In this document: one piece after another, positions 16,706 through 59,523 of the stretch
Layout of the letters: every line of letters starts with the position of its first letter
Numbering within the stretch: the first letter of the stretch is position 1
Assembly: GCA_002762795.1 (NCBI GenBank)
Contig: PCYA01000014.1
Location: 5,632 to 69,631, forward strand
Direction of reading: 5' to 3'
Source: Candidatus Woesearchaeota archaeon CG10_big_fil_rev_8_21_14_0_10_37_12
GTDB lineage: Archaea; Nanobdellota; Nanobdellia; Woesearchaeales; ARS49
Length of the DNA: 64,000 bases
The notes under the pieces: generated by a model
What the model was told of the DNA's origin: nothing
The model's input: only the letters and a program-made list of their open reading frames with translations
Databases searched by the model: none
Position numbers and translations under genes: made by a program

Positions 16706-17443
16706 GTGGAAGTTGTTCTCTATATGGCAATGTCTGTTAATGGAATGATTGCTGATGAGAGCTGCAATGAAGATTTTCTTTCTGATGTTAACTGGAAAAC
16801 GCTGATAGATCTTTCAGAAAAATATGGAGGGTTTATTATTGGCAGAAAAACGTATGACGCTGTCAAGAACCACCGGTGATCGCTCCTTCGTCGCTCAACA
16901 CCAGTGGCATGACTGTTCAGAAAATTATAAGAAAAATATGACCAGTGGTTCCCAAGAAAATCCAGAGGATTTTCTGGGCCAGAAAATGCTTTGCATTTTC
17001 TTGGCTTGATCATGCTCGGAATACCGCTCGCTTCAGTAAACCACTCGTGATAAACACGAGTGGCATTCCGACATGTAAAAAAATGGGGAACTCCGAGCTT
17101 TGAGGATGTTCCTGGAATTAAAATTGTTGTTTCAAAAAATAAAAATCTAAATTTGCCTGAGAGTTACATAGTTGCAACAAGCCCTGATGATGCGCTGGTA
17201 AAAGCAGAAAGTGCAGGTTTGAAAAGTGTTCTGCTTACAGGCGGTTCAATGTTAAACAGTGAGTTTATGAAGAAAAATCTGATTGATGAGATTGCTCTTA
17301 ATATTGAGCCTGTTTTAATTGGAAAAGGTGTGCCTTTATTTGGAGAAAGTTCTTTTGAAAAAAAACTCAAGTTAATTGAAGTTAAAAAGATAGAAAAAGA
17401 TATTTTGCAATTAAAGTATAAAGTAAGAAAGAAATATGATTAA
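16706..17443 (+). pseudogene. Dihydrofolate reductase/RibD C-terminal family gene interrupted by a 213-bp palindromic element
   Basis: 5' half MEVVLYMAMSVNGMIA...IIGRKTYDA joins 3' half VKKWG...TGGSMLNSEFMKKNLIDEIALNIEPVLIGKGVPLF when 16861-17073 is removed, giving 174 aa. Confidence 0.9.
16861..17073. mobile_element. Palindromic element type C (213 bp) with a nested 54-bp double hairpin at 16952-17005
   Basis: TGTCAAGAACCAC...GTGGTTC[54]TTGA TCATGC TCGGAAT...ATTCCGACA. Confidence 0.9.
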
Positions 17444-17500
17444 CTTTTCACAACTTTTTTATACTTGTAGAAAGTCCGAATAGCTGTTAAATTAAAATCG

Positions 17501-17601
17501 CGCCGCCGCTGGGATTTGAACCCAGATATCGCTGGCTGCGAATACGGTGATCTGACCGCAAACGCTTTCAGACCGTTGTCATACCTTTAGACTACGGCGG
17601 C
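17501..17601 (-). tRNA. Intron-containing tRNA; canonical splicing gives anticodon GAA (Phe), but it has a long variable arm and G73
   Basis: GCCGCCG/CGGCGGC acceptor, GTC/GAC D stem, ACGGT/ACCGT anticodon stem, CTGGG-TTCAAAT-CCCAG T arm. 16-nt intron at 17550-17565 with a CTGA/TCAG helix and ATC bulge. Confidence 0.8.
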
Positions 17602-17716
17602 GCTTATTTTTCTTAATGCGTTACTTATTAAGAAGCCTTGCGGCAGAAATCACGTAAATTTTCCGACGAGTTTCGTAATCATTTCAGAGATTTTGGTTTT
17701 TTCCGAAAATAATTTT

Positions 17717-18250
17717 TTAGAAATCTAATTTTTTGTATCCGAACCGTGCTAAATCATTGATAATATTCATGTAGCTTTTTCCGCAGAGCATTCCGCCTGC
17801 TGTGAATTTTTCTTGTGTTACGTTTGCTAAGCAGAAGTCTGGCATTTGAAAGTTGTTTTTGTCTTCTTCTTTTTCAAATTCAAAATCTACTAAAACAAGG
17901 CCTTTCAAATCTCCTTGAAATATATCTACTTCTGCTATTCGCCCTTGATATTCATAGCAATATCTGATTTTGTGTACTTTTTTCCCTTCAAGTTTAAAGA
18001 ATGCGTCAAATTCTTCTTTTGTTAATGGAATTGTGTGTTCGTGTTGTGCTGATGCATCTCCTTCTTTTACTGGATATTTTTTGGTCATTTCGTATTTATC
18101 GCCATTTTTTCGCAGTCGTAGAACTGGATGATTGCTTTCTTTTGGGTAATACACATCTATGATTTCTTTTGATTTGCATCCTGTTAAATCTGGCAATATT
18201 TTTGCAAGGAATGTTTTTTCGAGTTCTATCATTATAATAAGCGGAGCCAT
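17717..18250 (-). CDS. CYTH/triphosphate tunnel metalloenzyme
   Basis: 'IELEKTFL', 'LRLRK', 'KIRY', 'EVDIF', 'VDFEF'. Confidence 0.85.
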   Translation of the reverse strand: MAPLIIMIELEKTFLAKILPDLTGCKSKEIIDVYYPKESNHPVLRLRKNGDKYEMTKKYPVKEGDASAQHEHTIPLTKEEFDAFFKLEGKKVHKIRYCYEYQGRIAEVDIFQGDLKGLVLVDFEFEKEEDKNNFQMPDFCLANVTQEKFTAGGMLCGKSYMNIINDLARFGYKKLDF

Positions 18251-18295
18251 TTGCTTTTTATCTTTTGCTGTGCTTGATAAGATACTTACAGAAAA

Positions 18296-19069
18296 TCATT
18301 TCCCTAAAATGTGATCTTTTGCTCGTCTTTGATATGCTCTCATGTTCCTCAAGTCTTCTTCAGCAGGTGGGTTTCGTGAAAGATATTGATGGCCCTCTAT
18401 TAAATCAACATTTAGAATTGGTCTGACAAGGAAGTATCCTCCATCGTAAATATCTTCTGGAGTTATGTTGTCATTTTGTGGCCAGGAATACGTAAATGGT
18501 TGTGCAAATCTTCCTCTGCGAAAGTATTCTCCTGTTCCTTCAAGGATTATTTTTTCTCCGAGCGTTTTTGGTGGTGGTAGTCCTAGTTTTTCTCGGCGAA
18601 GATCGTCCCAGAAATGTCCTAGTTCGTGTCTTATTATTTCATCAAGTTGATGTTTCCAGTCAGGTGCTGTTGTTGCTTCTGTTGGCGGAATAATTAATGT
18701 GTCTATGTCAGGAGCGTACATTCCAGAATCGTCTCCTGTGTGAGATGCTATAAAAAGAACGCCTGGAGATCGTGCATATTTTATTCGGAAATATTTTTCT
18801 TGTTCTTTCATGATTCGGGGAATTGCTTCTGTAACATGAGGTTCTACCTGCTGTCGATGTAAGTTTAATATCTGTTGAAGGTTTTCGTTACGGCCTCTGT
18901 TTTCAAGAGAAATAAGGGAGTTTTTGTATTCTGCGCGTAGAAAAGCTGCTGCAGCAATTAAAACCATGTATGCTGCAAGTCGTCCTGCTCCGAATTTTGC
19001 TTTGTTCACAAGCTCACCAGTTATCGTTTCGATTACTTGCTTATATATTTTACTAAAATTACCACTCAA
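18296..19069 (-). CDS. Membrane-anchored putative zincin metallopeptidase
   Basis: N-terminal TM, 'IIRHELGH' HExxH followed by 'LEGTGEY'. Confidence 0.6.
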   Translation of the reverse strand: MSGNFSKIYKQVIETITGELVNKAKFGAGRLAAYMVLIAAAAFLRAEYKNSLISLENRGRNENLQQILNLHRQQVEPHVTEAIPRIMKEQEKYFRIKYARSPGVLFIASHTGDDSGMYAPDIDTLIIPPTEATTAPDWKHQLDEIIRHELGHFWDDLRREKLGLPPPKTLGEKIILEGTGEYFRRGRFAQPFTYSWPQNDNITPEDIYDGGYFLVRPILNVDLIEGHQYLSRNPPAEEDLRNMRAYQRRAKDHILGK

Positions 19070-19135
19070 AAGTAGTTTAAAGTGCTGATTTGTTTAACAG
19101 TTACCTTTTTAGCATGCTTTTTATAACCAAAACCC

Positions 19136-19966
19136 ATGTTAGAAGATATGGTTTGGCGTGTTTTGCCGTTAGAAGAGCGGAGTCCGTTTGTGATTGCTGC
19201 AATGGAAGAAGTTTTGTTAGAAACTGCTGCAGATAAGAACATAAATACAATTGTGTTTCATGAGTGGCCAGCTTCTTTTTCGCTTCCAATGGCTCAAACA
19301 TTGGCTGATTTGAATTTTGAGCGTTGTCAAAGAAAAGGTTTGCCAATTGTGCAGACAACTGTTGGCGGAAGAGCTGTTTATCATGATAAAGATTATTGTT
19401 TGTCTTATTGTGTTGCAATAAACAAAGATACTTTACCTGAAAAAGTATTTAATGATAACACAAAGTTGTATCATTTTTTGCTCGAACGTGTCGTGCGTGG
19501 TTTAAACGCGTTAAATATTCCTGCAGAAACAGTCAATAATCATTATGTTCGTGTTGGTGATAAAAAAATTTCGGGTAATGCAATGAAAAAAATTCAGGGT
19601 GGTATTGTATTGCATGGTTCTTTGTTGTTCGACATTCCTGACGTTGATGGTTACGTATCAAGAATGTTAGACTTCACAAATACGCGTGGTGAAAGAAATG
19701 GTTGGCACAGAGATATTGCACAATTGTTATCTTGTGTTCGCTGGCATAACCAAACAGTTTCTCGTGAACAAGCATGTGCTGCAATTGCTCGTGCGTTTGG
19801 TGCTGATTATTCTGTCAGAGGTTCCTTAATTGCTGATGAAGAGACTAAAATACGTGAATTATCGCGAGGCAAGTATGCAAAACTGGAAGAGTATTCTGGG
19901 CAGCAAGAGCGTGGTTTGTGCTGGAGAAAGTATGGCGTTTCTCCTGAAGAGACAAGAGGACGTTAA
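19136..19966 (+). CDS. Lipoate-protein ligase A family protein
   Basis: 'VGGRAVYHD', 'DKKISGNA', 'LHGSLL'. Confidence 0.8.
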   Translation: MLEDMVWRVLPLEERSPFVIAAMEEVLLETAADKNINTIVFHEWPASFSLPMAQTLADLNFERCQRKGLPIVQTTVGGRAVYHDKDYCLSYCVAINKDTLPEKVFNDNTKLYHFLLERVVRGLNALNIPAETVNNHYVRVGDKKISGNAMKKIQGGIVLHGSLLFDIPDVDGYVSRMLDFTNTRGERNGWHRDIAQLLSCVRWHNQTVSREQACAAIARAFGADYSVRGSLIADEETKIRELSRGKYAKLEEYSGQQERGLCWRKYGVSPEETRGR

Positions 19967-21009
19967 TTTTTAATATTTATGTCACCTGGAAAGTGTTGTG
20001 TTTTGTGAAGATCCAATGCAAGGTGGTAACTATAATCGCGTATTGATTCTCCAAATTGTTCTTTCATTTTGGTTAGTATGTTAAGAAATTCATTAAAACC
20101 TGGGCATTCGACGTTAAATTCAAAATCGCTTCCCCCAATTGAGCGCAAAGATTTTACAATATATTGATTTGATTTAATGAATGTGTTTAAAGCTGTAAGT
20201 TCTTCAAGCTTTTCTAAGTTAACATTTACTTTATAATGATGATATCCTAGTGCATCAAGGTTTAGGGCTGCACGGTAGCGTACAATAATTTTTTTCTGTT
20301 CTAATTGTTTAATGCGGTAACTTACTGCTTTTGATGTAAGTTTTATTTTGTTTGCAAGCTCTATGAGAGAACAGCGCGCGCTTCGATACAGCAATTCAAG
20401 CAGTTGCAAATCTATTTTGTCAAGTTTTTCTGGTTTCGATAATCCTGTCACATCTACTAAATGTTTTAATTGTTTGCCTTCATAAAAGTGATGTCGTCTA
20501 AATCTGTATTCTTCTGTAATAATTGCTATTTCTTTGCGCTGAATATGTGGTCTGAATTTTTTTTCAAATGCAAGCCAAGTTTTGTCAAAGTCTTCGTGTG
20601 TTTTTACCCAGAGCATAAAAACAAAGTTCCAGTCGCCTTCTATGCGTGCTAGGTTACGAACGTTGTTCAGTTGCGAAATGTAGTTTATCATTTCTTTTTC
20701 TTTTTCAGAAGAAATATTTTGGAATTTAAGATAAACACGAACAGTGAAATATCCTAACTTCGAAGGATCAAGAACTGCATAAAATCTGCGAATGACTCCT
20801 TTTTCGATTAGTCTGTTAATACGATAAATTACTACGTCCTTGCTTAAACCGACACTTTTTGCTATTTGCAAATATGTTTGTCTCGCGTCAGTGTCTAACT
20901 CATACAGAATCTTGCGATCCTTTAAGTCGAGATGTACAATTTCTGTCATCATTCTAAGAATATCTGTAGTTTTGAATATAAAAAGGTTCTCTTTTTTCTT
21001 AGAGTTCAA
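19963..21009 (-). CDS. Tandem double-domain Lrp/AsnC regulator
   Basis: Two 'LD..D..IL..L...AR' HTH units; likely start ~20950. Confidence 0.85.
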   Translation of the reverse strand: MNSKKKENLFIFKTTDILRMMTEIVHLDLKDRKILYELDTDARQTYLQIAKSVGLSKDVVIYRINRLIEKGVIRRFYAVLDPSKLGYFTVRVYLKFQNISSEKEKEMINYISQLNNVRNLARIEGDWNFVFMLWVKTHEDFDKTWLAFEKKFRPHIQRKEIAIITEEYRFRRHHFYEGKQLKHLVDVTGLSKPEKLDKIDLQLLELLYRSARCSLIELANKIKLTSKAVSYRIKQLEQKKIIVRYRAALNLDALGYHHYKVNVNLEKLEELTALNTFIKSNQYIVKSLRSIGGSDFEFNVECPGFNEFLNILTKMKEQFGESIRDYSYHLALDLHKTQHFPGDINIKN

Positions 21010-21039
21010 CAGTCAGTTTAAATTAGCAAAAGCAACATA

Positions 21040-21990
21040 TTGTCCTATAAAATGACGACAAGTCTTCTTGGTATTGCACCTGCGCTTGATGACGCAATAC
21101 AAGAAGTAGCATATAACGGAGAGAGATATTCTGATTTTCATCCAGCTAATGCAGGTGATATAAGCCAAGTATTTGATGCACAGTTAAGTAGAGAGTTAGT
21201 TGATCGTTTTACTACTACAATGTCTGATTGGTTTGATATTACTCGTCTGCAAGATCTTGCAAGCATTCGTTGTGACGGAAGAGCAGGTTATCGAACAGAG
21301 GGCATAGAAAATCCTGGTTTTTATGAATTATTAGTTCCAATTACTGGGCGGGTTATGTTAATTACGCGTACTGGTTCTGATATTGCTTCAATAAAAAGTG
21401 TTGTAGACTGCGGACAAGATGGTAAGTTGTTTAATCTTGTGCAAGTTGATGACACTGGAAAACGTATTAGGATAATTTATGGTAATAAAGAATATGGTTC
21501 TATTCCTTCTATTGAAACGCATATTCATATTGCTGCTAATGCCATGCATATGGCTGAGGGTTGTGATACTCCTGCAACAGTCCATGCGCATCCTCCTTAT
21601 TTGGTTGCACTTGGAAGACACCCAAAAGTCGCAGGAGACTTTGAGCGGTTTAATGCTGTTGTTTATACTGCAGTTGAAGGATTAAATAGAAATCATAAAA
21701 AATTGATGGGTGTTGTTCCGTATCATCAATCTGGCTCTGCTGATTTGGTAGATAGCAGTTTAGATCCGTTAAAAAAACACGGTTTTGTGTTGTGGATGCA
21801 TCATGGTGCAACTGTTCGACAAATCAATATTCGTCAAGGGTATGTTATGCTTGGTTATGCCGAGCATTGTGCAAGAATGGGTCTTGATTCAGTGCGTGAA
21901 GGTGCGTTAAGAATGCCTGATAAAGAGATTGTTCCGTTCTTAGAAGAAAAAGGATTAAAAGCTGCATATGATGTTGTTTTTGAAACGTAG
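21040..21990 (+). CDS. Class II aldolase/adducin-like protein (rhamnulose-1-P aldolase-like); stop codon supplied by an inserted element
   Basis: 'PSIETHIH', 'VHAHP', 'VVPYHQSGS', 'LWMHHG'. Confidence 0.7.
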   Translation: MSYKMTTSLLGIAPALDDAIQEVAYNGERYSDFHPANAGDISQVFDAQLSRELVDRFTTTMSDWFDITRLQDLASIRCDGRAGYRTEGIENPGFYELLVPITGRVMLITRTGSDIASIKSVVDCGQDGKLFNLVQVDDTGKRIRIIYGNKEYGSIPSIETHIHIAANAMHMAEGCDTPATVHAHPPYLVALGRHPKVAGDFERFNAVVYTAVEGLNRNHKKLMGVVPYHQSGSADLVDSSLDPLKKHGFVLWMHHGATVRQINIRQGYVMLGYAEHCARMGLDSVREGALRMPDKEIVPFLEEKGLKAAYDVVFET

Positions 21991-22162
21991 AAATTCCATC
22001 AGTGTGCTCACTGGTGGTGAAGCAAAGCGTGTATGTGCTTATTGATTACAGGTGGAATTTCTAGGTGATCAAGAACCACTGGTCATATTTTTCTTATGAC
22101 TTTCTGAATAGTCATGCCATTGGTGATCGCACTGCGGTGCTCAACACCAGTGGTTCTTGACA
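21986..22162. mobile_element. Palindromic element type D (177 bp): B-like arm joined to a C-like arm
   Basis: CGTAGAAATTCCA...TGGAATTTCTA GGTGA TCAAGAACCACTGG...CCAGTGGTTCTTGACA. Confidence 0.85.
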
Positions 22163-22230
22163 AATAGGAAAAATAATGTGAGCCATAAAATAGTAAATGA
22201 AGCCACCATCAAAAATTTTGCACAGTCATT

Positions 22231-22350
22231 TTACGCTGAGATCGCTTCAAGGTACGATCTCATTTCTTGTGCTTCAAATGCATCGATTTGTCCTGCACGC
22301 AATAGGGTACTTATTGCCAACAAGTCTTCTTGCAAATGTTTGTATGCCAT
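22231..22350 (-). CDS. Small protein (39 aa), absent from the ORF track
   Basis: MAYKHLQEDLLAISTLLRAGQIDAFEAQEMRSYLEAISA with a GGAGG RBS upstream. Confidence 0.55.
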   Translation of the reverse strand: MAYKHLQEDLLAISTLLRAGQIDAFEAQEMRSYLEAISA

Positions 22351-22504
22351 CTTTTTTCCTCCGTCAAAAGCAACAATTTTTGTTGCCTTCAACGAATATC
22401 ACAATAACAACTGTTTTTAAATTCATTATGAAGAGTTGATTAAGATAGGAAATATTAACTAAATATCCACAAAGCTTAAAAAGTCATTTTTAAAATGGTG
22501 TACT

Positions 22505-23212
22505 ATGGTTCAAGCAATGGTAGGGCCTTCTTGGTTCTTAGGGGTTGATGCAAGCTTGGAGGCACTTGCAGGGATAATTGCGTTAGCTGTTGCGTTCGCA
22601 GCATTTCATATGTATTCTTTGACAAAAGAAAGAAGGTATGCTTTTTTAACAAGCAGTTTTGCTTTAATGACTGCAAGTTTTATTTCTCGTGCAGTAACTG
22701 ATGTGTTGCTTGCAAATAAAGAAGTTAGTTTATCTGCTGCAATGGCAAAGAATGTGTTTATTCTGGGGTATGTAACTCATATCCTGTTAGCACTGCTTGC
22801 GTATGTTTTATTAATAATTTTAACATACAGACTCCCTGATAAAAGATTGTGGGTTTTGCTTGTGCTTATTTTAATGCCAAGTTTGTTGTTAAGTTCAAGT
22901 TATTTCTTGAGCTTTTATGGTTTGAGCGTGATTTTGCTTGGTTTTGTTTCATTAGCATTTTATGACAACTATGTAAATAATAGATCTTGTGCTGCAGGCA
23001 TGGTGTTTCTTGCGTTTGCATTATTAACACTTTCTCAGATACAATTCCTTCTTGGACCTTTGAAAGATTTACTATACGTTTCTGCGCATGCAACTCAAGC
23101 AGCAGGATTTTTGATGTTGTTTTTTGTGTTAGTCAAGGTTAAATTGCGTCCAAAAGATATTGCGCGGGATGAAAAATTAGATGTTAAAAAAGGTAAAAAA
23201 AGGAGCAAATGA
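22505..23212 (+). CDS. 7-TM membrane protein
   Basis: Seven hydrophobic segments; coupled to the next gene. Confidence 0.75.
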   Translation: MVQAMVGPSWFLGVDASLEALAGIIALAVAFAAFHMYSLTKERRYAFLTSSFALMTASFISRAVTDVLLANKEVSLSAAMAKNVFILGYVTHILLALLAYVLLIILTYRLPDKRLWVLLVLILMPSLLLSSSYFLSFYGLSVILLGFVSLAFYDNYVNNRSCAAGMVFLAFALLTLSQIQFLLGPLKDLLYVSAHATQAAGFLMLFFVLVKVKLRPKDIARDEKLDVKKGKKRSK

Positions 23213-23478
23213 AACGTTCAAAATTAGATATTGTCTATGACATGCTCAGAGCAATGGAGGACAAGGGAGGCAGAATTATTCCAACTCATTTGCTTTATAA
23301 GTCAAATTTGTCTCATCAGCGCATGAAATTGTATCTCAAAGAGTTAGAAGATAAAAATATGATTGTTGAAGTTGAAGTGAAAGGGAAAAAAATGTTTGAA
23401 CTTACTGATGGCGGCAGAAAATTCTTGCAGAACTTCAAGCAGATGAAGGAATTCACTGAAGCGTTTGGTCTGTCGTAG
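23209..23478 (+). CDS. Archaeal winged-helix DNA-binding protein
   Basis: 'KRSKLDIVYDML...THLLYKSNLS...YLKEL...LTDGGRKFL'. Confidence 0.85.
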   Translation: MKRSKLDIVYDMLRAMEDKGGRIIPTHLLYKSNLSHQRMKLYLKELEDKNMIVEVEVKGKKMFELTDGGRKFLQNFKQMKEFTEAFGLS

Positions 23479-23508
23479 TTTTCTAAGAACGTAGATTTTT
23501 TATAGTAG

Positions 23509-24087
23509 TTGCTATTAATTGCTGATATGAAAAGAGAGGTATGGTTATTGGCTTTTGCTTTATTTTTGCCTGCATTTATGGTTATGAGCATGGTGGAGCT
23601 TTCTTCGCCAGAGGGAAGAGTTGTGAACCCTATGGCAGAATTTCGTATGAACAGGATCAATTTGTGGTTCCCGTATCCATTCGGTGTTTCTCCAAGTTGC
23701 CAGGCACATGTTGCAACAGTGCAAACAGGTATTAGAATTAACAGTGATGGAAAGTTTTATGGTTTGAGTGGTTTGCAGCATGGCCAGGAATATTTTGATA
23801 ATGAGCGTGTGTTATTCACTGCATTAGAAAAAATACAAACTCCTGAGCCGTATGTGCAAGCGTGTCCGTTTGACATTGAAACTCGTGCTGTTGAAGTTAG
23901 AGATGCTCTTGTAAAGTTAAATGGTGATTTGATTTTGTATACGTTAGATAATACTCCTTGTGATCGTCCGCAAGCAGCGTTTAATTATATTGATAGTGCA
24001 TTGAATGCTAGCGCGATGCATGACGATCAGGTATTTTTGAATGATTTTGAGCAAAGTTGGTTGTTGCTTACGGAATGTACGCGATGA
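23509..24087 (+). CDS. Hypothetical membrane-anchored protein
   Basis: N-terminal TM; likely start near 23527. Confidence 0.55.
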   Translation: MLLIADMKREVWLLAFALFLPAFMVMSMVELSSPEGRVVNPMAEFRMNRINLWFPYPFGVSPSCQAHVATVQTGIRINSDGKFYGLSGLQHGQEYFDNERVLFTALEKIQTPEPYVQACPFDIETRAVEVRDALVKLNGDLILYTLDNTPCDRPQAAFNYIDSALNASAMHDDQVFLNDFEQSWLLLTECTR

Positions 24088-24647
24088 AGTTTTCTAAGTT
24101 AGAAATTAGAGATATAGTGAAAGCGTGGTTTACTGTTTCGTTAATGTTTGCGATTGCGTTAACTGGTCTTAAGCAAGAGTTACTCGTAGCATTGTTGTTT
24201 GCGTTAGTAACTGCTGGTATTGGTTTTGTGTTGCACGAGTTAGCTCACAAATTTGTTGCACAAAAGTATAAGTGTCAGGCTGAGTTTCGCGCAAATAACC
24301 GAATGTTGCTTGTTGGGTTGATCATTAGTTTTACTGGGTTTATTTTAGCTGCTCCTGGCGGAGTATTTGTTCAGGGCGCAAATAAAAGTCAGCATGGCAA
24401 GATTGCTTTTGCTGGTCCGTTGATGAACATCTTGCTCGCCATTTTATTTTTAGTGTTAACAAAAACAACAACTGGTTTGCTCGCAAATGTCATGTTGTAT
24501 GGTTGGTTGATTAACAGCTGGCTTGCAGCGTTTAATTTGATTCCAGTAATTCCTTTTGATGGCAGGGCTGTTTGGTTGTGGAACAAAATTGTTTATGTTA
24601 TTGCAGTGATTGTTTCTTTGGGATTGGTTGGGTTTTCGATGGGTTGA
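24084..24647 (+). CDS. Site-2 protease (peptidase M50)
   Basis: 'LHELAH', 'AGPLMN', 'FNLIPVIPFDG'. Confidence 0.9.
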   Translation: MKFSKLEIRDIVKAWFTVSLMFAIALTGLKQELLVALLFALVTAGIGFVLHELAHKFVAQKYKCQAEFRANNRMLLVGLIISFTGFILAAPGGVFVQGANKSQHGKIAFAGPLMNILLAILFLVLTKTTTGLLANVMLYGWLINSWLAAFNLIPVIPFDGRAVWLWNKIVYVIAVIVSLGLVGFSMG

Positions 24648-24695
24648 TATTTTTTGGACGTAATCTTTTTAAACAAAGCTCACCTATATTACAGT

Positions 24696-24976
24696 ATGAG
24701 ACGAGAAGATATATTGAAAACTATTGCGAGCAAGTTAAAGAAAGCTGGAGCTAGAAAAATCGCCATATTTGGCTCTTATGCACGGAAAGAAGAAAAAAAA
24801 ATAGCGATGTTGACGTTTTGGTTGAATTTTCTGAACCGAAATCTTTGCTTGAATTTGTTGGAATTGAACAAGAGTTAGCTAAAGCAACAGGCAAAAAAAT
24901 TGATTTGCTCACCGAAAAATCTATCAGTCCTTATTTAATTAAAAGAATAAAGAAAGAATTGGTGGATATAGCTTGA
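24696..24976 (+). pseudogene. Minimal nucleotidyltransferase (MNT) antitoxin, frameshifted in an A9 run
   Basis: 'IFGSYARKEEKK' and 'SDVDVLVEF...IDLLTEKSISPY' lie in different frames across 24793-24801. Confidence 0.8.
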
Positions 24977-25306
24977 TGGAAAAAGATAATTCCGTTTACT
25001 TAAAGCACATTTTAGACGCGATTAAACGAGTTGAAGAATACACAAAAAACTGCAGTAAAGAAAAGTTTTCTAGAAACAAACATGATTCAAGCAGCAGTGA
25101 TTCGTGAGATTGAAATTATTGGAGAGGCTGCCAAAAATTTAAGCAGTAAGTTCATAGAGACCTATAAAAACATACCTTGGAAACAAATTGTAGGGATGAG
25201 GGATAAACTCATTCATGGTTATTTTGGAGTTGATTTAGAATCTGTTTGGAAAACAGTAAAAGAAGATTTGCAGTATTTAAGGAAGGAGATTAAGAAAATA
25301 AAGTAA
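24976..25306 (+). pseudogene. DUF86/HepT-like HEPN RNase, frameshifted near 25066
   Basis: 'MEKDNSVYLKHILDAIKRVEEY' is out of frame with 'EIIGEAAK...IPWKQIVGMRDKLIHGYFGVD'. Confidence 0.8.
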
Positions 25307-25443
25307 TCTTGTTGAGTTTGCGATGGGTTGATTGATAATCATTCAATTTTAAGTTTTCTTTTAGGCAACTTTGAATTAATCAGCTTTTTGGTGAATGGCG
25401 TGAACGCCCCATAATTCTTGTCGTCGATATTCAAAGTTGGCTT

Positions 25444-25536
25444 AGGGAACGCTCGAAAATTGTGATTTTCGGCGCACCAAAAAGCTTGGCTTTTTTAGTG
25501 CTTTGACTCAATTAAGATAGTTTTTCAAAGTTCCCT
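25444..25536. repeat. Hairpin with a 51-bp double hairpin inserted in its left arm (25451-25501)
   Basis: AGGGAAC|TTTGA pairs with TCAAA-GTTCCCT once the insert is skipped. Confidence 0.65.
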
Positions 25537-25640
25537 TTACAAAAAAACTGAATCACTCCCCACTCGACAACTGCTCGTAATCTTTTTAAACAGCTCATAA
25601 AACCAATGATACATAAGTAAGAATACAATTTAATTACAAT

Positions 25641-33121: not shown

Positions 33122-33323
33122 ATTATTGCAAAGTTCGCAGGACTTTGCACTGGGGTTTAAAACCACGCCCAGCTGGAAGTCTCCAACTTCCAGCTTGCTC
33201 AGAAAATTACACACCTATACGATTTTTGTAATTTTCTGACATTTAGGGCGAACTTTGCAAGTAGAAAAACGCACGATAAAATACCCCGACCTTCAGGTCG
33301 GGGAATAGTGCGTTTTTCTTTAT
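33122..33323. mobile_element. Palindromic element type F with a nested 71-bp element at 33171-33241
   Basis: Same frame as 49467-49598; extra AGCTGGAAG...CTTCCAGCT-TGC-TCAGAAAATTACA...TGTAATTTTCTGACA. Confidence 0.85.
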
Positions 33324-35497: not shown

Positions 35498-36367
35498 ATG
35501 AAACGAGCATTAGTTTTGTTAATTTTTTGTTCATTGATAGTTTCTGCTCTTCCTCAATCACAAGGTTTTGTGAATGATTTTGCAAATATTCTGTCTTCTG
35601 AAGACGAGCTAAGGCTTTCAAGTTTGATTGATTCTATTGAAAAAAATACAAGTGTTGAAATTGCAATTGTTATAATTCCTGAATTAACTGACAAGTCTAT
35701 TGAGGAAGAAGGTCTTGCTTATTTGGAGGGTTGGGGCGTTGGTAAAAAGGACAAAGATAATGGCATAGTAATAGTGATTGCGCCAAACGACAGAAAGTAT
35801 CGTATTGAAACTGGCTATGGTATGGAAGGTATTATTCCTGATAGTATTTCTGGCCGGCTTGGCAGAGATATTCTTGTTCCTGCATTCAGAGAAGAAAAAT
35901 ATGGCGAAGGTTTGTATCAGTTAGTGTTGGCTATTCAGGGTTTTGTTGGCGATGATCCTGCAATTGTTGAAAAATACAGTTTAGAAGAAGGCACGTTTGC
36001 TGCTGATACTATTTTGATTTTCTTTGGAGTTGTTGCGTTTTTAATGCTTGTTGGTTATACTGATGGTATTAAAAAAAAATGGCTACGTTGGACAGTATTT
36101 GGTACGAGTAATACCTTGCTTGCATTGCTTATTTTATTGTTCGCGTTTGCAATTGCATCCTTTATTTTTGGCATATTTGGTTTTATTTTGCTTGTATTTG
36201 GCCCCGTTATTTTTTACTTCTTAAGCAAATCTCCTGGCAATTTTGGAAAAGGCAATAATGGTGGCGGTTTTATTTGGTTTGGCGGTCCTGGTGGAGGTTT
36301 TGGTGGCTCTGGCGGAGGTTTTGGTGGCGGTTCTGGTGGTGGCGGAGGAAGTAGTGGTGGTTGGTAA
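35498..36367 (+). CDS. TPM-domain (YgcG-like) membrane protein
   Basis: 'FVNDFANIL', 'WGVGKKDKDNG', 'IETGYGMEG', Gly-rich tail ending in GGW. Confidence 0.9.
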   Translation: MKRALVLLIFCSLIVSALPQSQGFVNDFANILSSEDELRLSSLIDSIEKNTSVEIAIVIIPELTDKSIEEEGLAYLEGWGVGKKDKDNGIVIVIAPNDRKYRIETGYGMEGIIPDSISGRLGRDILVPAFREEKYGEGLYQLVLAIQGFVGDDPAIVEKYSLEEGTFAADTILIFFGVVAFLMLVGYTDGIKKKWLRWTVFGTSNTLLALLILLFAFAIASFIFGIFGFILLVFGPVIFYFLSKSPGNFGKGNNGGGFIWFGGPGGGFGGSGGGFGGGSGGGGGSSGGW

Positions 36368-48358: not shown

Positions 48359-48534
48359 ATAGTATACACCTCCTGTGTTGAATTTATTAATCTGAGAATT
48401 CGATTTATATCTTCTGCTAATACTTTATAGAATTTATATAAAAAAATCAATATTATAAACAAAAACAAAGAAAATCATAAAATCAAAAATATTATATAGT
48501 TCATAGTATCTACATTTTTGGGGAAGAATCTACC

Positions 48535-52556: not shown

Positions 52557-52619
52557 ATTATATAAGCTTTACAGTGAATAAATCACAAAATTTATAAATA
52601 GTTCGAATATGTTTAAGAA

Positions 52620-52780
52620 TGTCAAGAACCACCCGTCAATAGACGGGTGGCATGAAGCGATAGCTTCATCTTCGCTTGTAATGACCAGTGGTTCTTGAGC
52701 ATGCTCAGAAATATACCAGATCACTATGGTAATAAGGACTCTGTCCATCAGTCAAATAGACTGATGGTATATTTCTGACA
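52620..52780. mobile_element. Palindromic element type A (161 bp), intergenic
   Basis: Identical by eye to 55734-55894. Confidence 0.92.
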
Positions 52781-52919
52781 TATTAAATATTATGAACAGT
52801 GAGAAGACTATAGAAAAGTTTGACTCGATTTTGATGGTTTTTCAAGCTTTTCTAAGAAGTGTTTAAATAACGCAGAAGGTAAAGGTTATTCAAAGCTCTC
52901 TATAAAAAGGATAATTTAA

Positions 52920-53324
52920 ATGACAAAACATCAAGGAAAAAAACATGGATCTAAGGCAGATATAGGACATACTGCTGCATATATTGTTGAAATACGAGTA
53001 GTTGGTGAATTGAGGAGAGCTTATGATATTGTAACTAACAGTTTTGCGGGAAGCTTAACAGCTGCTGAACAGTTTTATTTAGGAACACCCGCATATGGCA
53101 AATCTGATGATGGTAGAGCAGTTTTAGGGTTAGCAGCTGCTGTAAGAGATATTGCAAACAGATGTGGGTTGCAATACGCTTCAGCATCTCAAGGAAAGTG
53201 TCCTTTAAGTGATCTAGTGAGCGATGTTGGTCCTGAATTAGAACGTAGAGAAGAAAGATTGCGAGCCTATTTTGAAAGCACGTTGGCTCCTAAAGCGTAT
53301 GCTGCTAAGAAAAATGTATCTTAA
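52920..53324 (+). CDS. Hypothetical protein
   Basis: 134-aa ATG ORF. Confidence 0.5.
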   Translation: MTKHQGKKHGSKADIGHTAAYIVEIRVVGELRRAYDIVTNSFAGSLTAAEQFYLGTPAYGKSDDGRAVLGLAAAVRDIANRCGLQYASASQGKCPLSDLVSDVGPELERREERLRAYFESTLAPKAYAAKKNVS

Positions 53325-53375
53325 GTAACATTTAAATATCATATTCTATTCTGAAGTTAATTAAAGAGGTGTTTT

Positions 53376-55496
53376 ATGGTTCGTCATGTTCATACTAGTA
53401 TTTTTTTGATTGTTGCCATTGTTGGTGTTGCTGCTATTTTGTTTTCATCTGCGTTGTACCCTTCTCCTGTTTTGTTTGCAGTATCTTATTTGCCTGGTGA
53501 GGATGAGGTTGGTAGTGATACTGTTATTGTTAGTTTGAATGTGAATGATTTTATTAGTAGTGAACTTGAAGCTGTAGGAAGCGGACAATTCTCAGGGTTA
53601 AACAGCGGAACAATACAAACAAGAGATTCGAGAACTGAGTATACTCAATCATTACGTTTTGCACAATCAGGCGTGTTTAGTGGTGGTCAGGTTCTTTTTG
53701 GCCGTGATGAATCAAATAGAGTGAGTGATTTTTTACAGTTTGATGGTTCTGGATATGTTTTTGAGTACCGAGTTGATTTTGGTTCTGGGCTGAGAAGTAA
53801 AGTTGAAGTTGCGGGCCGTTTAGAGGATATGATTGGTGAAGAGTGGACTATGGGTGGTGCGCGATTTGCATTAGTTGATGCGGTTGCTGACACAACAGTA
53901 AATAGAATGCGCTTGAGATTTTTTGGCGGTTTTGGAAGTGTTGATTTTGAAGATAATGATTATACAGATGATTTGTTTCAACAAAGCGGTGTTCGTGTTA
54001 ATGGTCAGACTGTTGATGCTGATGTAAAAATAAGGGCAACAGAGACGTCAAATGATAAATTAACTATTTTTTCTATTCAGTATAGGCTTTCTGCAAATGC
54101 AAAGCAAGGCGGCGATGTGCAGGTTTTGCCATTGCATTGCGTAAGGGAGTTCTTGCAGCATCCTCTTGGAATGTTGTTCCCTGATTTTGATATTTGTTAC
54201 AAAGGCGCATCTGGTACTGCTCAGGCATCTTCTGGTATTTCTGGTAATTTGGTGCATGTGAAAGCGCGTGGTGATGATGAGTATGTAATGCGCGCGCAGA
54301 ATTTGTATGGGCAAACGTATGAAATTCCTCTTGCGCAGCTTCCGGGAATGTACGGTAATAGAGGAAGGAATTTTGTGTTTGTTGAGGCTGCAAATCTTGG
54401 TGCTCCAAATATTAATGTAAATGATTATTTGCTTGTAAACAGTAGGGACTGGCTTGGTGTCTCTCATGTGTTGCGTCTTGATCAAATAACAACTAATCAA
54501 GTGTATTTTGAAGATCTTGGAGGAAATCAAAGACAAGCAGTTTTTGATTCTGCAACTGGTGAAGGCGATTTGATTATGAGTGAAGGCACATATCATTTTA
54601 GAGTAACAGGTAATCAGCTTGCAATAGATCAGAATAATGATAATACTGTGAATGGGGGCGAAGCAGCATTCCATTTACCAGGTGGAACGTACATTGATTT
54701 TGGTCCCGGGTTTACTGTTAGTATTATAACTCCTCAGCGTTTGTTGGAAGAACAAGTAACTGACGAAGTAACCCAATTTGATATTACATTTGGAAGCAAC
54801 ATTGATTTGGATGTTTCGTCTCCGCAAGGAACTGTTTTTGAATTACATGGTTCAGGTAGTGGTGTTCGTGAAGGTATGACTTTGTATGGTATTCATTTCC
54901 GTTGGGATCAAGAATCTGATTCTGATGATTTGAGAATTACTGTTCCTGGTGCTCGTGCGCGTCAAGTGCGTGGTGGTGCAACTGCGCAAGTGTATCTTAC
55001 TTTAGAGCGTGATCGTTGGATGACTCCTGCACAACAACAATCTCCTGCTGCAGTTTGTGGCAATAGATTAAAGGAAAATGGAGAATATTGCGATCCTCCT
55101 GGAAGTTTGTGTGCGCAGAATGAGCAGGGAGGTGTTTGTGCAGATGATTGTAAATCGTGTGCGATTACTCCTCCTGCTGTTTGTGGTAACAGGTTGTTAG
55201 AACGTGGTGAGCAATGTGAGTCACGAGGTGATTGTGCTCAAACAGAAGATTGTCAAAACTGTAATTGTGTTCCTCTACCTAAAGCAGTATGCGGAAATAA
55301 CTTGCTTGATTTAGGAGAACAATGCGAAAAAGATGTTGATTGCTTGGGTGGTTTGGTTTGCAGAGGCTGCATGTGTGTTCCACAACCTAGATTGGACGTA
55401 CAAACACCTACTGCTCCTGTTGCAGCACAACCTGTACAACAGCCAAATGTCATTGCAAAATTCTTTTTGTGGATTGCAGGATTGTTCGGTGCCTGA
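53376..55496 (+). CDS. Surface protein: S-layer-like beta-rich body plus C-terminal Cys-rich repeats
   Basis: N-terminal TM, three 'AVCGN.L.E.GE.C' repeats, amphipathic C-terminal tail. Confidence 0.65.
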   Translation: MVRHVHTSIFLIVAIVGVAAILFSSALYPSPVLFAVSYLPGEDEVGSDTVIVSLNVNDFISSELEAVGSGQFSGLNSGTIQTRDSRTEYTQSLRFAQSGVFSGGQVLFGRDESNRVSDFLQFDGSGYVFEYRVDFGSGLRSKVEVAGRLEDMIGEEWTMGGARFALVDAVADTTVNRMRLRFFGGFGSVDFEDNDYTDDLFQQSGVRVNGQTVDADVKIRATETSNDKLTIFSIQYRLSANAKQGGDVQVLPLHCVREFLQHPLGMLFPDFDICYKGASGTAQASSGISGNLVHVKARGDDEYVMRAQNLYGQTYEIPLAQLPGMYGNRGRNFVFVEAANLGAPNINVNDYLLVNSRDWLGVSHVLRLDQITTNQVYFEDLGGNQRQAVFDSATGEGDLIMSEGTYHFRVTGNQLAIDQNNDNTVNGGEAAFHLPGGTYIDFGPGFTVSIITPQRLLEEQVTDEVTQFDITFGSNIDLDVSSPQGTVFELHGSGSGVREGMTLYGIHFRWDQESDSDDLRITVPGARARQVRGGATAQVYLTLERDRWMTPAQQQSPAAVCGNRLKENGEYCDPPGSLCAQNEQGGVCADDCKSCAITPPAVCGNRLLERGEQCESRGDCAQTEDCQNCNCVPLPKAVCGNNLLDLGEQCEKDVDCLGGLVCRGCMCVPQPRLDVQTPTAPVAAQPVQQPNVIAKFFLWIAGLFGA

Positions 55497-55584
55497 TTTT
55501 ATTCTTTTTTGGGTAAGCCATCAATTTCACAGAATAATGGACTTTTTCAATTAATTATTTAAGCAATTATAATTTACACCGGTT

Positions 55585-56465
55585 ATGCCTAAAATTGCTG
55601 TTGCCCAGATTAAAATTTTTGATGAATTGAGCAAAAATGTAAATAAGGTTATTGAGTTTATAGATAGGGCTTCCATTAAGAAAGCAGATTTGGTTTGTTT
55701 TCCTGAATCTTGTTTAGGTAACGACTTTTTGAATGTCAAGAACCACCCGTCAATAGACGGGTGGCATGAAGCGATAGCTTCATCTTCGCTTGTAATGACC
55801 AGTGGTTCTTGAGCATGCTCAGAAATATACCAGATCACTATGGTAATAAGGACTCTGTCCATCAGTCAAATAGACTGATGGTATATTTCTGACATATTAA
55901 TGGTGCTGAGATAAGAAGTATTAGGGAGAAATGTAAAGAGAGTTCTATTTACTGTATTTTTGGTGCTCATGCGAAAGATAAGGGAAAATTTTTCAATTGT
56001 GCTTTTTTAATTGATAGGAAAGGGAGGATTCAACATATTTATAAGAAAGTGAATTTATTTTCTGGTCTTGAGTTGGAGCAGACTTGTAATGGAGAATGGA
56101 ATGGGGTAATAAAAACAGATTTTGGAGATATTGGGATAATTATTTGTTGGGATTTTGCGTTTCCAGAACATATTAAGAAACTTTCGAAAAATGGTGCACA
56201 GATTATTTTCTGTCCTTCTTATTTGTTAAAAAGTGCAAGAATAAGTAAAGATGTTTTTAGAAGTTATCCTCTTACCAGAGCTTTTGAGAATTTGTCATAT
56301 TTTGTAACTTGTGATGCTTTTGGTAGCGATGTGATTTCTGAAAGTTATATTTGTAGTCCATTAAAGGTTTTGAATAAGATCTTACATCGAGAGGGTATTA
56401 TTTTTGCGGATTTGGATTTGAAGAAAATTATTCAGTTAAGAAAAAAATACAATTGTTTGAGCTAG
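55585..56465 (+). pseudogene. Carbon-nitrogen hydrolase (nitrilase family) interrupted by a 161-bp element
   Basis: Removing 55734-55894 gives ...FPESCLGNDFLN-INGAE...YKKVNLF...IICWD, 239 aa with an intact E-K-C triad. Confidence 0.92.
55734..55894. mobile_element. Palindromic element type A (161 bp), inside the nitrilase gene
   Basis: TGTCAAGAACCAC...GTGGTTCTTGA GCATGC TCAGAAATATACCA...TGGTATATTTCTGACA. Confidence 0.92.
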
Positions 56466-56490
56466 GCTTGTAGTTCTATTCATTTCAAGT

Positions 56491-57807
56491 TTAAACAATA
56501 TTCCCATACCCTATTAATCTCCATCTCTGTCCTACATTTCTGCCAATGGTTACTTGTGATCCTTTTTCTGCGCAGACTGGTCTTTTGAGAGAACAAGTTA
56601 TAATATTTTTGCTAAGGTCTTTTACTATTCCTACTGTGGCTGCTGCGTTAACGTTTAACATGAGCATTTCTGATTGTTTGATTGGTTCGACTACAAGTTT
56701 GTCTTTTGCTCCTACTACTCTTTCAAGGAGTTTTGTTTGTAATTTTAATTCTTGCCAGACTGGCGGTGAATTTCCTGGTGTTGTTACTGTGCTTCCTACT
56801 AGTTTGTCGCTTTTGACAACGCTTGGGTCTAATTGTGTGAGTAATGCGAATGTTCCTCCAGGGGTTGCTTCTTGTACTTCTGTGTTTCCTGCCATGATTT
56901 TGGTTATTTTTGTTTTGAATGGTTTCCATACTTGTTGATTTCTTTCTTGAACAGAATATCCTGGCAGGATTTCTATTTCTTGTCCTGTTGTGAGCTTGCC
57001 TTGTTTGAGTGATCCGCCGATCACTCCTCCGATTATTTTTTGTGGTGTTGTGCCTGGTTTGTTGACGTCGAAGCTTCTTGCTATGTACATGATTGGTTTT
57101 GCTGCCAGATTTCTTTCTGGTGTTGGAACAAGTTCTTCTATTGTTTTGATAAGCATGTCTAAATTAACTCCGTGTTTTGCGCTCATTGGGAGTATTGGTG
57201 CTTCTGTGTATGGTGTGTTTTTGAGAAAGTTTTTGATTTGTTGGTAGTTTTTCTGTGCTTCTGTTTCATCCACAAGATCGATTTTGTTTTGTATAATTAT
57301 TAGTTTTGTTATGCCTATGATTTCCAGTGCTTGAAGGTGTTCTCTTGTTTGTGGTTGAGGGCAGGTTTCGTTTGCAGATATCATTAATATTGCTCCATCC
57401 ATGATGTTTGCGCCGCAGAGCATTGTTGCCATTAAGCTTTCGTGTCCTGGTGCGTCTACAAGCGATATTTTTCTGAGGAGTGTTGTTTCTTTGCCGCAAA
57501 TCTCACAAATAGGTTTTACTGTGTATGTATTCTCTTCGCAAGAGCATTTGTAGAATGAGACATCTGCGTATCCTAATCTGATAGTAATTCCACGCTTGAT
57601 TTCTTCAGAATGCGTATCTGCCCATTTGCCAGATAGTGTTTGTACGAGTGTTGTTTTTCCGTGGTCTACGTGTCCAATAATTCCTATGTTTATTTCTGGT
57701 TGTGCTGGTTGTTTTAGAGTTGTTTCTGCTACTGCTTTTTTGGTGGTTTTTCTCTTTGATGGTGTTTTTGCTTCTGTTTTTGTAGATGTTTTCTTCTTTG
57801 CAGCCAT
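56491..57807 (-). CDS. eif2g: Translation initiation factor aIF-2 gamma
   Basis: 'QPEINIGIIGHVDHGKTT', 'GITIRLGY', 'DAPGHE', 'NKID', 'WRLIGYG'. Confidence 0.97.
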   Translation of the reverse strand: MAAKKKTSTKTEAKTPSKRKTTKKAVAETTLKQPAQPEINIGIIGHVDHGKTTLVQTLSGKWADTHSEEIKRGITIRLGYADVSFYKCSCEENTYTVKPICEICGKETTLLRKISLVDAPGHESLMATMLCGANIMDGAILMISANETCPQPQTREHLQALEIIGITKLIIIQNKIDLVDETEAQKNYQQIKNFLKNTPYTEAPILPMSAKHGVNLDMLIKTIEELVPTPERNLAAKPIMYIARSFDVNKPGTTPQKIIGGVIGGSLKQGKLTTGQEIEILPGYSVQERNQQVWKPFKTKITKIMAGNTEVQEATPGGTFALLTQLDPSVVKSDKLVGSTVTTPGNSPPVWQELKLQTKLLERVVGAKDKLVVEPIKQSEMLMLNVNAAATVGIVKDLSKNIITCSLKRPVCAEKGSQVTIGRNVGQRWRLIGYGNIV

Positions 57808-57860
57808 AATAAATAAAGAAAAAGTACCATTTATAAAACTTTGGGGATAAAATAGCTTTA

Positions 57861-59168
57861 TCAGTGAATATATTGCGTTATTTCTTTTATTGCATTTTTA
57901 AGGGTTTTTTGGTCTTTTGCCTCAACAACTAATCGTACTAATGGTTGCGTGTTGCTGATTCTAAAATTGAACCAAAATTTACCTGTATTAACAGATACTC
58001 CATCCACTGATTTGATAATAAATTTAGCATATCTTTTCTTTAATTTTTTTCTGACTGTTTCTCTGTCTTTAACTTTAAAATTAAGTTCTTCTGATGTTTG
58101 GTATTTGTCAAAGGGCTTGATAAGTTCGCTGATTGTTTTGTCTGTTTGAGAAAGAAGTGTAAGTATCGTGAGTGCTGCTAAGTCTCCTGAGTCTCCGTAT
58201 TTGAATTTTTTGAAGTAGAAGTGTCCTGAGAGTTCTGCGCCAAGAACTGCATCGTGCTTAATCATTTCTCGTTGTACTTCTGTGTGACCTATTGGTACAG
58301 CGATTGCTTTGCCTTCCCATTTTGGAATGAATTCTTCTGCAACTCTTCCTGAGTTAACTGTGTACAATATCTTTTGTCCTTTTTTTATGATGTGTTGTGC
58401 GAATAGAAGAAGTGTTTTTACAGAGGGTATTCTTTTTCCGTTTTCATCTATGAAAAATGCTCTGTCACAATCACCATCGTAGCAAATGCCAAGATCATAT
58501 TTGCCTTGTTTAATTTGTTTTTGTAGTTCTTTGGTGTTTTTTGGTTCTGCAGGGTTTGGGGTGTGGTTTGGAAATGTTCCGTCAAGTTTTCCGTAAAGCA
58601 AATTGTATTTAATTGGTAACCCTGCAAGCAATTTTGGAACAACATATCCTGCCATGCCGTTTCCGCAATCAATAAGAACGCAAAGTTTTTTGTATTTCCC
58701 GCTTATAGTTTTTTTGGTAAAGTCAATATATTCTGAAAGAATATTTTTTGACGTTGCTCTTCCTAGTTTTTTGGGCTCTGGAAAATGGCAACTGTTAACA
58801 AGTTTTTCTATTTTGTTTAGTCCGTTTTTATAACCTATTTCAATAAATCCTTTCCCAACAATTTTGATGCCGTTGTATTTTGCAGGATTGTGCGATGCAG
58901 TAATCATAATTGCGTGATGTTTAAAAGAAGCATAATACAACATAGGAGTATTACATAATCCAATGTTAATTACATTGCATCCTTGGTCTGTTATTCCATA
59001 AATAAGTGCTTTTTGTAATGCGAGCGAGCTTGTTCTGCAGTCTCTGCCAACAACAATGGTTTTGGCTTTGAAGAATTGTACAATTGCTCTGCCAACATTG
59101 TATGCAAGTTTTTCATTAACTTCTTCAGGATATATTCCTCTGATATCAAATGATCTGAATGCAGACAT
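57861..59168 (-). CDS. Phosphomannomutase/phosphoglucomutase
   Basis: 'FDIRG', 'TASHNP', 'DGDCDR', 'ELSGH'. Confidence 0.93.
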   Translation of the reverse strand: MSAFRSFDIRGIYPEEVNEKLAYNVGRAIVQFFKAKTIVVGRDCRTSSLALQKALIYGITDQGCNVINIGLCNTPMLYYASFKHHAIMITASHNPAKYNGIKIVGKGFIEIGYKNGLNKIEKLVNSCHFPEPKKLGRATSKNILSEYIDFTKKTISGKYKKLCVLIDCGNGMAGYVVPKLLAGLPIKYNLLYGKLDGTFPNHTPNPAEPKNTKELQKQIKQGKYDLGICYDGDCDRAFFIDENGKRIPSVKTLLLFAQHIIKKGQKILYTVNSGRVAEEFIPKWEGKAIAVPIGHTEVQREMIKHDAVLGAELSGHFYFKKFKYGDSGDLAALTILTLLSQTDKTISELIKPFDKYQTSEELNFKVKDRETVRKKLKKRYAKFIIKSVDGVSVNTGKFWFNFRISNTQPLVRLVVEAKDQKTLKNAIKEITQYIH

Positions 59169-59243
59169 GACTCACCTCTTAAATGAGATATATTGAAGAT
59201 TGTATAAAAACGTTTGCTCTGATGACAGAAAGCATTTTTGACT

Positions 59244-59523
59244 TGTCGGAATGCCACTCACTCCAGTAAACCACTCGTGTTTATCACGAGTGGCATTCTG
59301 AGCATGATCAAGCCAAGAAAATGCAAAGCATTTTTTGGGAACCACTGGTCATATTTTTCTTATGATTTTCTGAATCAGTCATGTCACTGGTGTTGAGCAC
59401 CGCAGTGCTGTCAGAAATCAACAATAGTAATTATATTTTGTGTCGATTTCTGAGCACCCAGAAAACACGCACAATAATAATTGTTTTTGCGTGTTTCCTA
59501 TGGATCACCAGTGGTTCTTGACA
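59244..59523. mobile_element. Palindromic element type C in reverse orientation (280 bp), with nested inserts at 59313-59339 and 59409-59502
   Basis: Reverse-complement scaffold of 16861-17073. Confidence 0.88.

Follow-up and report, generated by a model that had tools for sequence, protein, structure and literature searches.

Modular palindromic repeats at the locus

We analysed a 64,000-nt stretch of DNA (the window) from Candidatus Woesearchaeota archaeon CG10_big_fil_rev_8_21_14_0_10_37_12, corresponding to positions 5632-69631 of contig C8 (C-numbers stand for contigs of the same genome assembly), and in particular its short palindromic repeats, in which the interiors of some hairpins read in opposite orientations in different copies. 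The genome is a 1.35-Mb draft in 19 contigs, with 36.5% GC, N gaps and a completeness score of 99.1%. Comparison of the genome with itself found 205 short-repeat loci summing to 33.5 kb, so that short modular palindromic repeats make up about 2.5% of its DNA. Interspersed repeats of the length of an insertion sequence were not seen in this self-comparison, in which the longest intervals measured about 450-560 nt, those on C11 being clustered.

The repeat system is built of modules, which we named A to G and which nest inside one another. Module A ends TGTCAAGAACCAC...GTGGTTCTTGA(T/G)CATG and exists in two main forms, of 75 nt (A75) and 90 nt (A90); 24 complete copies were listed with both ends, and the 10-mer CAAGAACCAC occurs 39 times on each strand of the genome. 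Module B, of which nine full copies were collected by blastn-short, is a 53-nt double hairpin whose insertion site always lies between GTGGTTC and CTTGA of the A tail. Modules C, D and E are palindromic and stand tail-to-tail with A through a GCATGC-type junction, F and G are two longer repeat families, and arrays of roughly 25-nt mini-hairpins with A-tract stems also belong to the repeat set, CAAGAA-like arm ends being common to all modules. The copies of the window that concern us here are the following (coordinates without a contig number are those of the window):

9576-9650, + strand: A75 module with the head TGTCAAGAACCAC on the left; both hairpins canonical
9651-9703, + strand: B module, a 53-nt double hairpin in the A tail; loop 1 in the rare, flipped state TCT (9663-9665), loop 2 TTT at 9689-9691
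9704-9797, + strand: C module with arms TCAGAAAT/ATTTCTGA, tail-to-tail with A/B via GAGCATGCTC
16861-17073, + strand: 213-nt composite of A90, B and D inside a RibD_C-family gene
Parts of this composite, + strand: A90 at 16861-16951, B at 16952-17004, D at 17016-17071; B loop 1 AGA at 16964-16966 (the common state), D inner loop ATAAA
21988-22063, + strand: palindromic module present once in the genome, its arms TAGAAATTCC/GGAATTTCTA pairing perfectly; the left arm holds the TAG stop of the open reading frame 21040-21990
22070-22159, - strand: A90 element with its head on the right as read on the + strand; 19-nt loop 22126-22144 inverted relative to all other copies
33171-33195, no strand assigned: hairpin AGCTGGAAGT-CTCCA-ACTTCCAGCT; the loop is the reverse complement of the paralog loop TGGAG (C4:6368), between the same asymmetric flanks
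59246-59301, + strand: D module with inverted interior, the spacer and inner hairpin being turned with respect to the module's head and tail and to the A/B modules beside it; inner loop TTTAT
59339-59523, - strand: A90 element in canonical loop orientation; loop split by two nested modules at 59409-59502 (remnants 59393-59408 and 59503-59505)

The A and D modules (17016-17071, 22070-22159 and their paralogs genome-wide) share a 'three-arm' design, with an internal partial copy of one terminal arm, so that the other arm can pair either with the internal copy, giving a short hairpin, or with the terminal arm, giving a long one. Module B, whose four arms have AGAAAAT in common, is predicted to adopt two folds of nearly equal energy.

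Inverted hairpin interiors in three modules

The original prediction, made from the sequence of the window, held that hairpin interiors occur in both orientations among the repeats and cited three cases, each of which is correct to the last base and is borne out by comparison with the other copies in the genome. The first is loop 1 of module B, which reads TCT at 9663-9665 and AGA at 16964-16966 inside 84-nt stretches that are otherwise 94% identical. Among the nine full B copies only the one at 9651-9703 has TCT, and in the repeat copy to which it belongs (9576-9797) loop 1 of B alone is flipped, the other sub-hairpins being in their usual orientation.

The second case is the 19-nt loop of A90. 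When reverse-complemented, the segment 22126-22144 (ATCGCACTGCGGTGCTCAA) matches 59393-59408 plus 59503-59505 exactly, even though the two A90 elements point in the same direction. This loop is bounded by CCA(C/T)TGGTG and CACCAGTGG; of 19 head-oriented genome copies, 18 have it in the orientation of 59393, and only the element at 22070-22159 has it flipped.

The third case is the D module at 59246-59301, whose interior runs the opposite way to the ends of the module and to the A and B modules beside it, with an inner loop TTTAT in place of the ATAAA found at 17016-17071. This module still has its tail next to A/B and its head at the opposite end, so that only the asymmetric interior has turned. 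An inverted interior was found in 1 of 14 listed D copies, and three further copies, read by eye (C3:62884, C3:69606 and C4:126489), are canonical. The TTTAT state of the inner loop by itself is also present in two canonical D copies (C7:10015 and C12:65916).

A base was also said to be missing from both sides of a stem in the palindromic module at 21988-22063. This module is single-copy in the genome, and the family with which to compare it is ambiguous; its arms (21988-21997 and 22054-22063) differ from those of the nearest family, E, by several paired changes and not by one deletion.

Genome-wide tests of loop inversion

Once genomic copies were aligned and the orientation of each sub-hairpin scored, opposite orientations were seen at many hairpins, each such state being rare. 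For a systematic test we took 971 hairpins with perfect stems of at least 7 bp and loops of 3-80 nt from 217 repeat loci, and aligned each in native, flipped, loop-reversed and loop-complemented versions, together with flanks of 25 nt, to all paralogous loci that had flank words in common with it. In 20024 comparisons the native orientation won 1884 pairs (496 hairpins) by at least 4 and the flipped one won 127 pairs (56 hairpins), the pairs not being independent; the loop-reversed and loop-complemented controls never beat the reverse complement in any of the 20024.

A second, stricter analysis sorted hairpins into 73 classes (254 occurrences) according to their stem and to ungapped identity of their flanks, and called an inversion when reverse complementation was better by at least two positions. 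Ten loop variants (15 copies) were best explained by reverse complementation and 31 by point changes. Eight of the ten inverted variants leave no residual difference and the other two leave one. Reversal without complementation explained none, and complementation without reversal tied in just five variants, each of them a 3-nt loop to which complement and reverse complement fit equally. Chance is excluded as the cause of the loop inversions, since the reversed and complemented controls never did better than the reverse complement. Ten hairpin classes show loop inversion, and with the addition of two cases with imperfect stems (the A90 loop and the D interior) the number of polymorphic hairpins is at least 12. 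Examples, all with identical asymmetric flanks, are:

Stem GCGAAAAA: loop TACA or TGTA, flipped at C4:19864
Stem AAGAAAATTC: loop CTC or GAG, flipped at C8:131745
Stem AAGAAAATTC: loop AAA or TTT, C10:30123 against C19:20344
Stem AGAAAATC: loop TCAA or TTGA, C10:23437 and C11:46813
Stem AGCTGGAAGT: loop TGGAG or CTCCA, CTCCA at window 33171-33195

Every called flip sits between perfect arms of at least 7 bp. The flips are concentrated in stems of 8-10 bp with loops of 3-6 nt, apart from the one case with a 19-nt loop, and no flip was called among loops of 26-80 nt (733 pairs in the same orientation).

Recurrence of an inverted loop in independent contigs

Inversions at palindromes could also be produced by the assembler or by chimeric reads in a short-read metagenome assembly, the very objection that the original prediction had raised against itself. 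The assembly is a 19-contig draft with N gaps, several of its contigs begin or end in repeats, and the assignment of a variant to a given repeat copy depends on the assembler. The stems of 7-10 bp are, however, much shorter than any k used in assembly, and a graph with k=31 cannot be confused by stems of 9 bp; k-mers joining flank, stem and loop must therefore be present among the reads for both states. A contig of the probable source run (X1) over 22124-22400, which takes in the flipped loop of A90 and the flank to its right, has a depth of 16.7, and the adjoining left contig has 17.7. A run from another study (X2) contains contigs that match 21829-22153 and 22124-22399 with 0 differences and thus carry the flipped 19-nt loop with both of its flanks. 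Six loci are identical in a separate metagenome assembly, and ten hairpin classes show inversions while the controls show none. An assembly artefact is unlikely, and we give very little probability to the idea that it accounts for the flips. Contig joints that skip 54 nt at 9649/9704 and at 16950/17005 are most simply taken as contigs from paralogs lacking module B, and not as polymorphism.

Apparent mobility of the repeats

The repeats behave like transposable elements of the miniature inverted-repeat class (MITEs): they have terminal inverted repeats, are small, non-coding and present in many copies, are nested in one another, and one copy lies inside a gene. This copy is the 213-nt composite at 16861-17073, which splits a RibD_C-family gene (window 16706-17443). 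The downstream part of the gene, from 17075, matches RibD_C with an E value of 3.5e-15 over profile positions 103-196 of 197, and the upstream part, in the same frame, stops at a TGA inside the element (16877-16879). TGT is present at both borders, and removal of the element together with one TGT joins the two halves in frame; the border TGT may belong to the end of the element, and an empty site was not seen.

The genome has no match to the six Pfam transposase families searched, namely PF01797 (Y1_Tnp), PF07282 (TnpB zinc-ribbon), PF01609 (DDE_Tnp_1), PF00665 (rve), PF13358 (DDE_3) and PF12762 (DDE_Tnp_IS1595). A gene for a Y1 transposase of the type associated with repetitive extragenic palindromic (REP) sequences (RAYT) was accordingly not found, PF01797 having no match in the genome. 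As regards HUH nucleases, PF01797 was the family searched in this 99.1%-complete genome, the parvoviral and other Rep families lying outside the search.

All six repeat stretches tested are predicted to fold strongly as single-stranded DNA, with z scores of -4.8 to -5.9, and none of 200 shuffled sequences was as stable. Two 175-nt composites of A75 and C (52612-52786 and 55726-55900), 99% identical and in direct orientation 3114 nt apart, may bracket a duplicated or mobile segment.

Other features of the window

Rfam at its gathering thresholds matched none of the repeats, and its sole match was a tRNA on the - strand at 17501-17601. The match covers 101 nt against a model of 71 positions, and ARAGORN with default settings calls no tRNA there, which fits an intron-containing, archaeal-type tRNA gene. 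Five tandem repeats with a period of about 555-561 nt lie at 1289-3801, are 62-88% identical to the reference copy and probably belong to a gene for a repeat-domain protein, while runs rich in GGT and GGC with a periodicity of 9-12 nt (5158-5211 and 36277-36360) are likely glycine-rich coding stretches.

Origin of the inversions

Loop 2 of module B is AAA in 4 of 4 copies with module E next to them and TTT in 5 of 5 with D or C. Since the state of the loop tracks the neighbouring module in 9 of 9 copies, flips are inherited by later copies and not made anew in each round of copying; the difference in B loop 2 is one event, passed on with composite copies. The inversions are exact and bounded by arms, they affect many hairpins but are rare at each of them, and they are partly co-inherited with neighbouring modules. 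Because of these properties, and because sub-hairpins of one element flip independently and the flipped state is heritable and favoured by short loops between arms of 8-10 bp, we consider it most likely, with a probability of about 0.62, that they are sporadic small inversions between short inverted repeats, arising in MITE-like modular repeats and later spread by copying. The segment between two short perfect arms, mostly of 8-10 bp around loops of 3-6 nt (19 nt in one case), would occasionally invert in place. Most likely, a replicating strand would switch template at the hairpin or cruciform and then switch back (inter-strand template switching), and RecA-independent exchange between the two arms would be an equivalent route. 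The inverted copy would then stay as it is, and its state would be passed to the copies made from it. Template switching as the molecular route is our inference.

Several observations limit this explanation or weigh against it. There are fewer events than flipped copies. Some good hairpins never flip: ATGAAGC-TATC-GCTTCAT does so in 0 of 15 copies and CCCGACC-TTCA in 0 of 16, in two classes, so that either the process is not uniform or selection or family age matters. The TTTAT state of D is found on two different backgrounds, that is, on two right-half variants of A90, and therefore requires recurrence or recombination between copies. That inversion takes place in situ, rather than during transposition, is something that we infer, the searches of other genomes and of metagenomes having turned up no orthologous locus in a second strain or species. 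The pairs of the flip test are not independent of each other, and the A90 loop is the only flip that was compared with independent contigs. A BLAST-type search found the A90 element absent from 40 other genomes of the same family and order; the 9 loci that a gapped-pattern scan gave in metagenome contigs belong either to the same organism (100% identity) or to another one with the canonical state only, the loop being in canonical orientation in 9 of 9, and so yielded no new flips. Finally, the read data consist of Logan contigs, which break inside repeats and in which minor isomers at a locus are invisible.

The main rival explanation is that the inverted loops come from other copies. Pairs of oppositely oriented paralogs could exchange sequence through their palindromic stems, an inverted loop being donated by short-tract gene conversion or by inter-molecular template switching; in a variant of this explanation, whole mini-palindromes (two arms and a loop, about 25 nt) would be cut out and re-inserted either way round. 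The repeats are clearly mosaic: A90 combines two types of loop with two variants of its right half in several ways, and metagenome contigs of another organism carry an element whose left 53 nt are identical to A90 and whose right half is different. One nested module pair (window 59409-59502 and C19:20205-20490), moreover, sits after ATC in the loops of A90s of different loop types, which suggests either that copies recombine or that this insertion site is a preferred one. The common CAAGAA-like arm ends suggest that mini-hairpins could be minimal mobile units, and where stems are perfect the inversion of a whole hairpin cannot be told from that of its loop. Against exchange between copies, a homology of only 8-10 bp would make pairing within the molecule, over a few bases, more favourable than pairing with a remote paralog. 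Against re-insertion of mini-palindromes, the orientations in conserved arrays are mostly conserved and not random, and the 3-nt loops of B sit in stems with a fixed asymmetry (CCAAG...CTGGG) that did not flip, so that there the whole unit did not turn. Taken together, exchange between copies and re-insertion seem to us unlikely, though they deserve more credit than any of the other alternatives.

The original prediction went further and proposed that the elements pass through a folded single-stranded intermediate, with flip/flop isomers arising by hairpin-primed replication as at parvoviral termini. The first half of this proposal stands in part: as the flips are true inversions between hairpin arms, and strong folding of the single strand is predicted for these sequences, an intermediate that is folded or strand-switched is very plausible. 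Hairpin-primed synthesis of the parvoviral kind, in which each round can invert an interior, is improbable. It would agree with the predicted folding, with the apparent mobility of the elements as units (as in the 213-nt composite in the RibD_C gene), with the lack of matches in 6 of 6 Pfam transposase families, and with one flip of a whole interior, that of the D module at 59246-59301. The frequencies of the two states, however, are far from 1:1 across copies (the rarer state occurs in 1 of 19 copies of the A90 loop, 1 of 9 of B loop 1 and 1 of 14 of the D interior). The flipped segments are internal, and sub-hairpins flip independently of each other. The interior as a whole is inverted relative to head and tail in 0 of 24 complete A copies and in 0 of 19 head-oriented A90 copies (two overlapping lists), the nearly complete genome lacks a match to PF01797, and the state of B loop 2 is inherited with the neighbouring module.

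A further explanation would see the flips as copying footprints of an undescribed superfamily of modular palindromic elements in DPANN archaea, served by an enzyme outside the six families searched. Folding as single-stranded DNA would involve the heads (TGTC-A/G-GAA), tails (TGA-G/T-CATG) and internal 'decoy' arms, and the enzyme would prime or resolve synthesis at the hairpins and occasionally turn an interior. A scan with 15-mers, in which 80 of at least 117 stretches were examined and were mostly chance matches, detected real A-like elements at five loci in metagenome-assembled genomes (MAGs) labelled Woesearchaeota or Nanoarchaeota. These elements and those of the MAGs G042-G044 end GTCAAGAACCAC...GTGGTTCTTGA and are laid out as in the window genome, a first hairpin that re-uses CCAC/GTGG of the terminal repeat being followed by CATGA and by a second hairpin; the first hairpin's loop is rich in purines on one and the same strand throughout, and 9 complete copies come from G042 by itself. 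Such agreement in ends and in three-arm layout would fit a conserved machinery. Taken with the tRNA match at 17501-17601 that ARAGORN does not call, these elements suggest that the window genome is that of a DPANN-type archaeon. We nevertheless regard a dedicated superfamily as a doubtful source of the flips.

The repeat set is a natural reporter array, recording in an unculturable organism how often strands switch at short inverted repeats and how this depends on the lengths of stem and loop. Flips of this kind mimic clusters of substitutions, and would therefore distort any alignment, tree or dating of the repeats. The nested modular repeat system itself, shared in outline with other DPANN genomes and with no transposase match in the families searched, may deserve a study of its own.

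Comparison with known systems

Parvoviral flip/flop, of the type seen in adeno-associated virus, takes place at the telomeres of a linear single-stranded DNA genome, where hairpin transfer with a Rep nickase in each round gives about equal numbers of the two isomers. The repeats studied here resemble it in that the interior of a palindrome is present in two reverse-complementary orientations. Unlike parvoviral termini, the flipped segments of the window genome are internal and chromosomal, are flanked by unique DNA, have skewed frequencies, flip independently of each other and occur in a genome with no HUH match (PF01797). On three defining points, then, the analogy fails: the segments are not terminal, the two isomers are not about equally common across copies, and the interior is not inverted as a whole in each round.

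A closer likeness is found in plastids. Kelchner and Wendel are said to have described hairpin-associated small inversions in plastid DNA in 1996. Small inversions of 5-50 bp between inverted repeats of 11-24 bp have been called 'flip-flop orientations' (Kim & Lee 2005, as cited in the available portion of PMC12928735). In plastids a short spacer between short inverted repeats exists in both orientations, and the inversions are exact, are bounded by the arms and look like a substitution cluster in alignments, as they do here. The plastid inversions lie between orthologous loci of different species, however, their loops measuring 5-50 bp and their arms 11-24 bp, whereas those of the window genome lie among paralogous mobile palindromic repeats within one genome, with arms mostly of 8-10 bp and loops mostly of 3-6 nt.

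Inversions of hairpin loops in rRNA and miRNA genes have been attributed to inter-strand template switching (Monttinen & Loytynoja 2022, PMC8794818). According to the part of that paper available to us, these are complete loop inversions 'in place' between perfect stems that bear no footprint, which is also what we observe. The set of RNA genes contains 69 cases of 'loop inversion only' beside 9,406 single compensatory changes, and its loops are mostly of 4 nt and partly self-complementary. In the window genome, in contrast, 10 of 41 loop variants in 73 classes are inverted, in non-coding repeats whose loop sequence is probably unconstrained.

As elements, the repeats resemble REP sequences and their bacterial interspersed mosaic elements (BIMEs), the REP doublets known as REPINs, and prokaryotic MITEs, which, in the portions of the papers available (PMC3116915, PMC11602168), are likewise short, palindromic, non-coding, present in many copies and mosaic or nested. 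Unlike REPINs, they occur in a genome with no RAYT/Y1 match, and their modules have true terminal inverted repeats and an asymmetry of head and tail. According to the available part of PMC11602168, a census, the most MITE-rich archaeal genomes include a Woesearchaeal one, with 105 per Mb. The words 'flip', 'inversion' and 'reverse complement' are all absent from the accessible text of the REPIN paper (PMC3116915), and the literature searched, with subscription journals outside its scope, holds no paper that links loop inversion with MITEs or REP sequences. Small hairpin inversions have usually been noticed singly and between species, while here dozens of paralogous hairpins have both states within one 1.35-Mb genome and about a quarter of the loop variants (10 of 41) are inversions. 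The class of mutation is therefore a known one, and what is new is its setting, paralogous mobile palindromic repeats in one small genome, and the density at which it occurs there.

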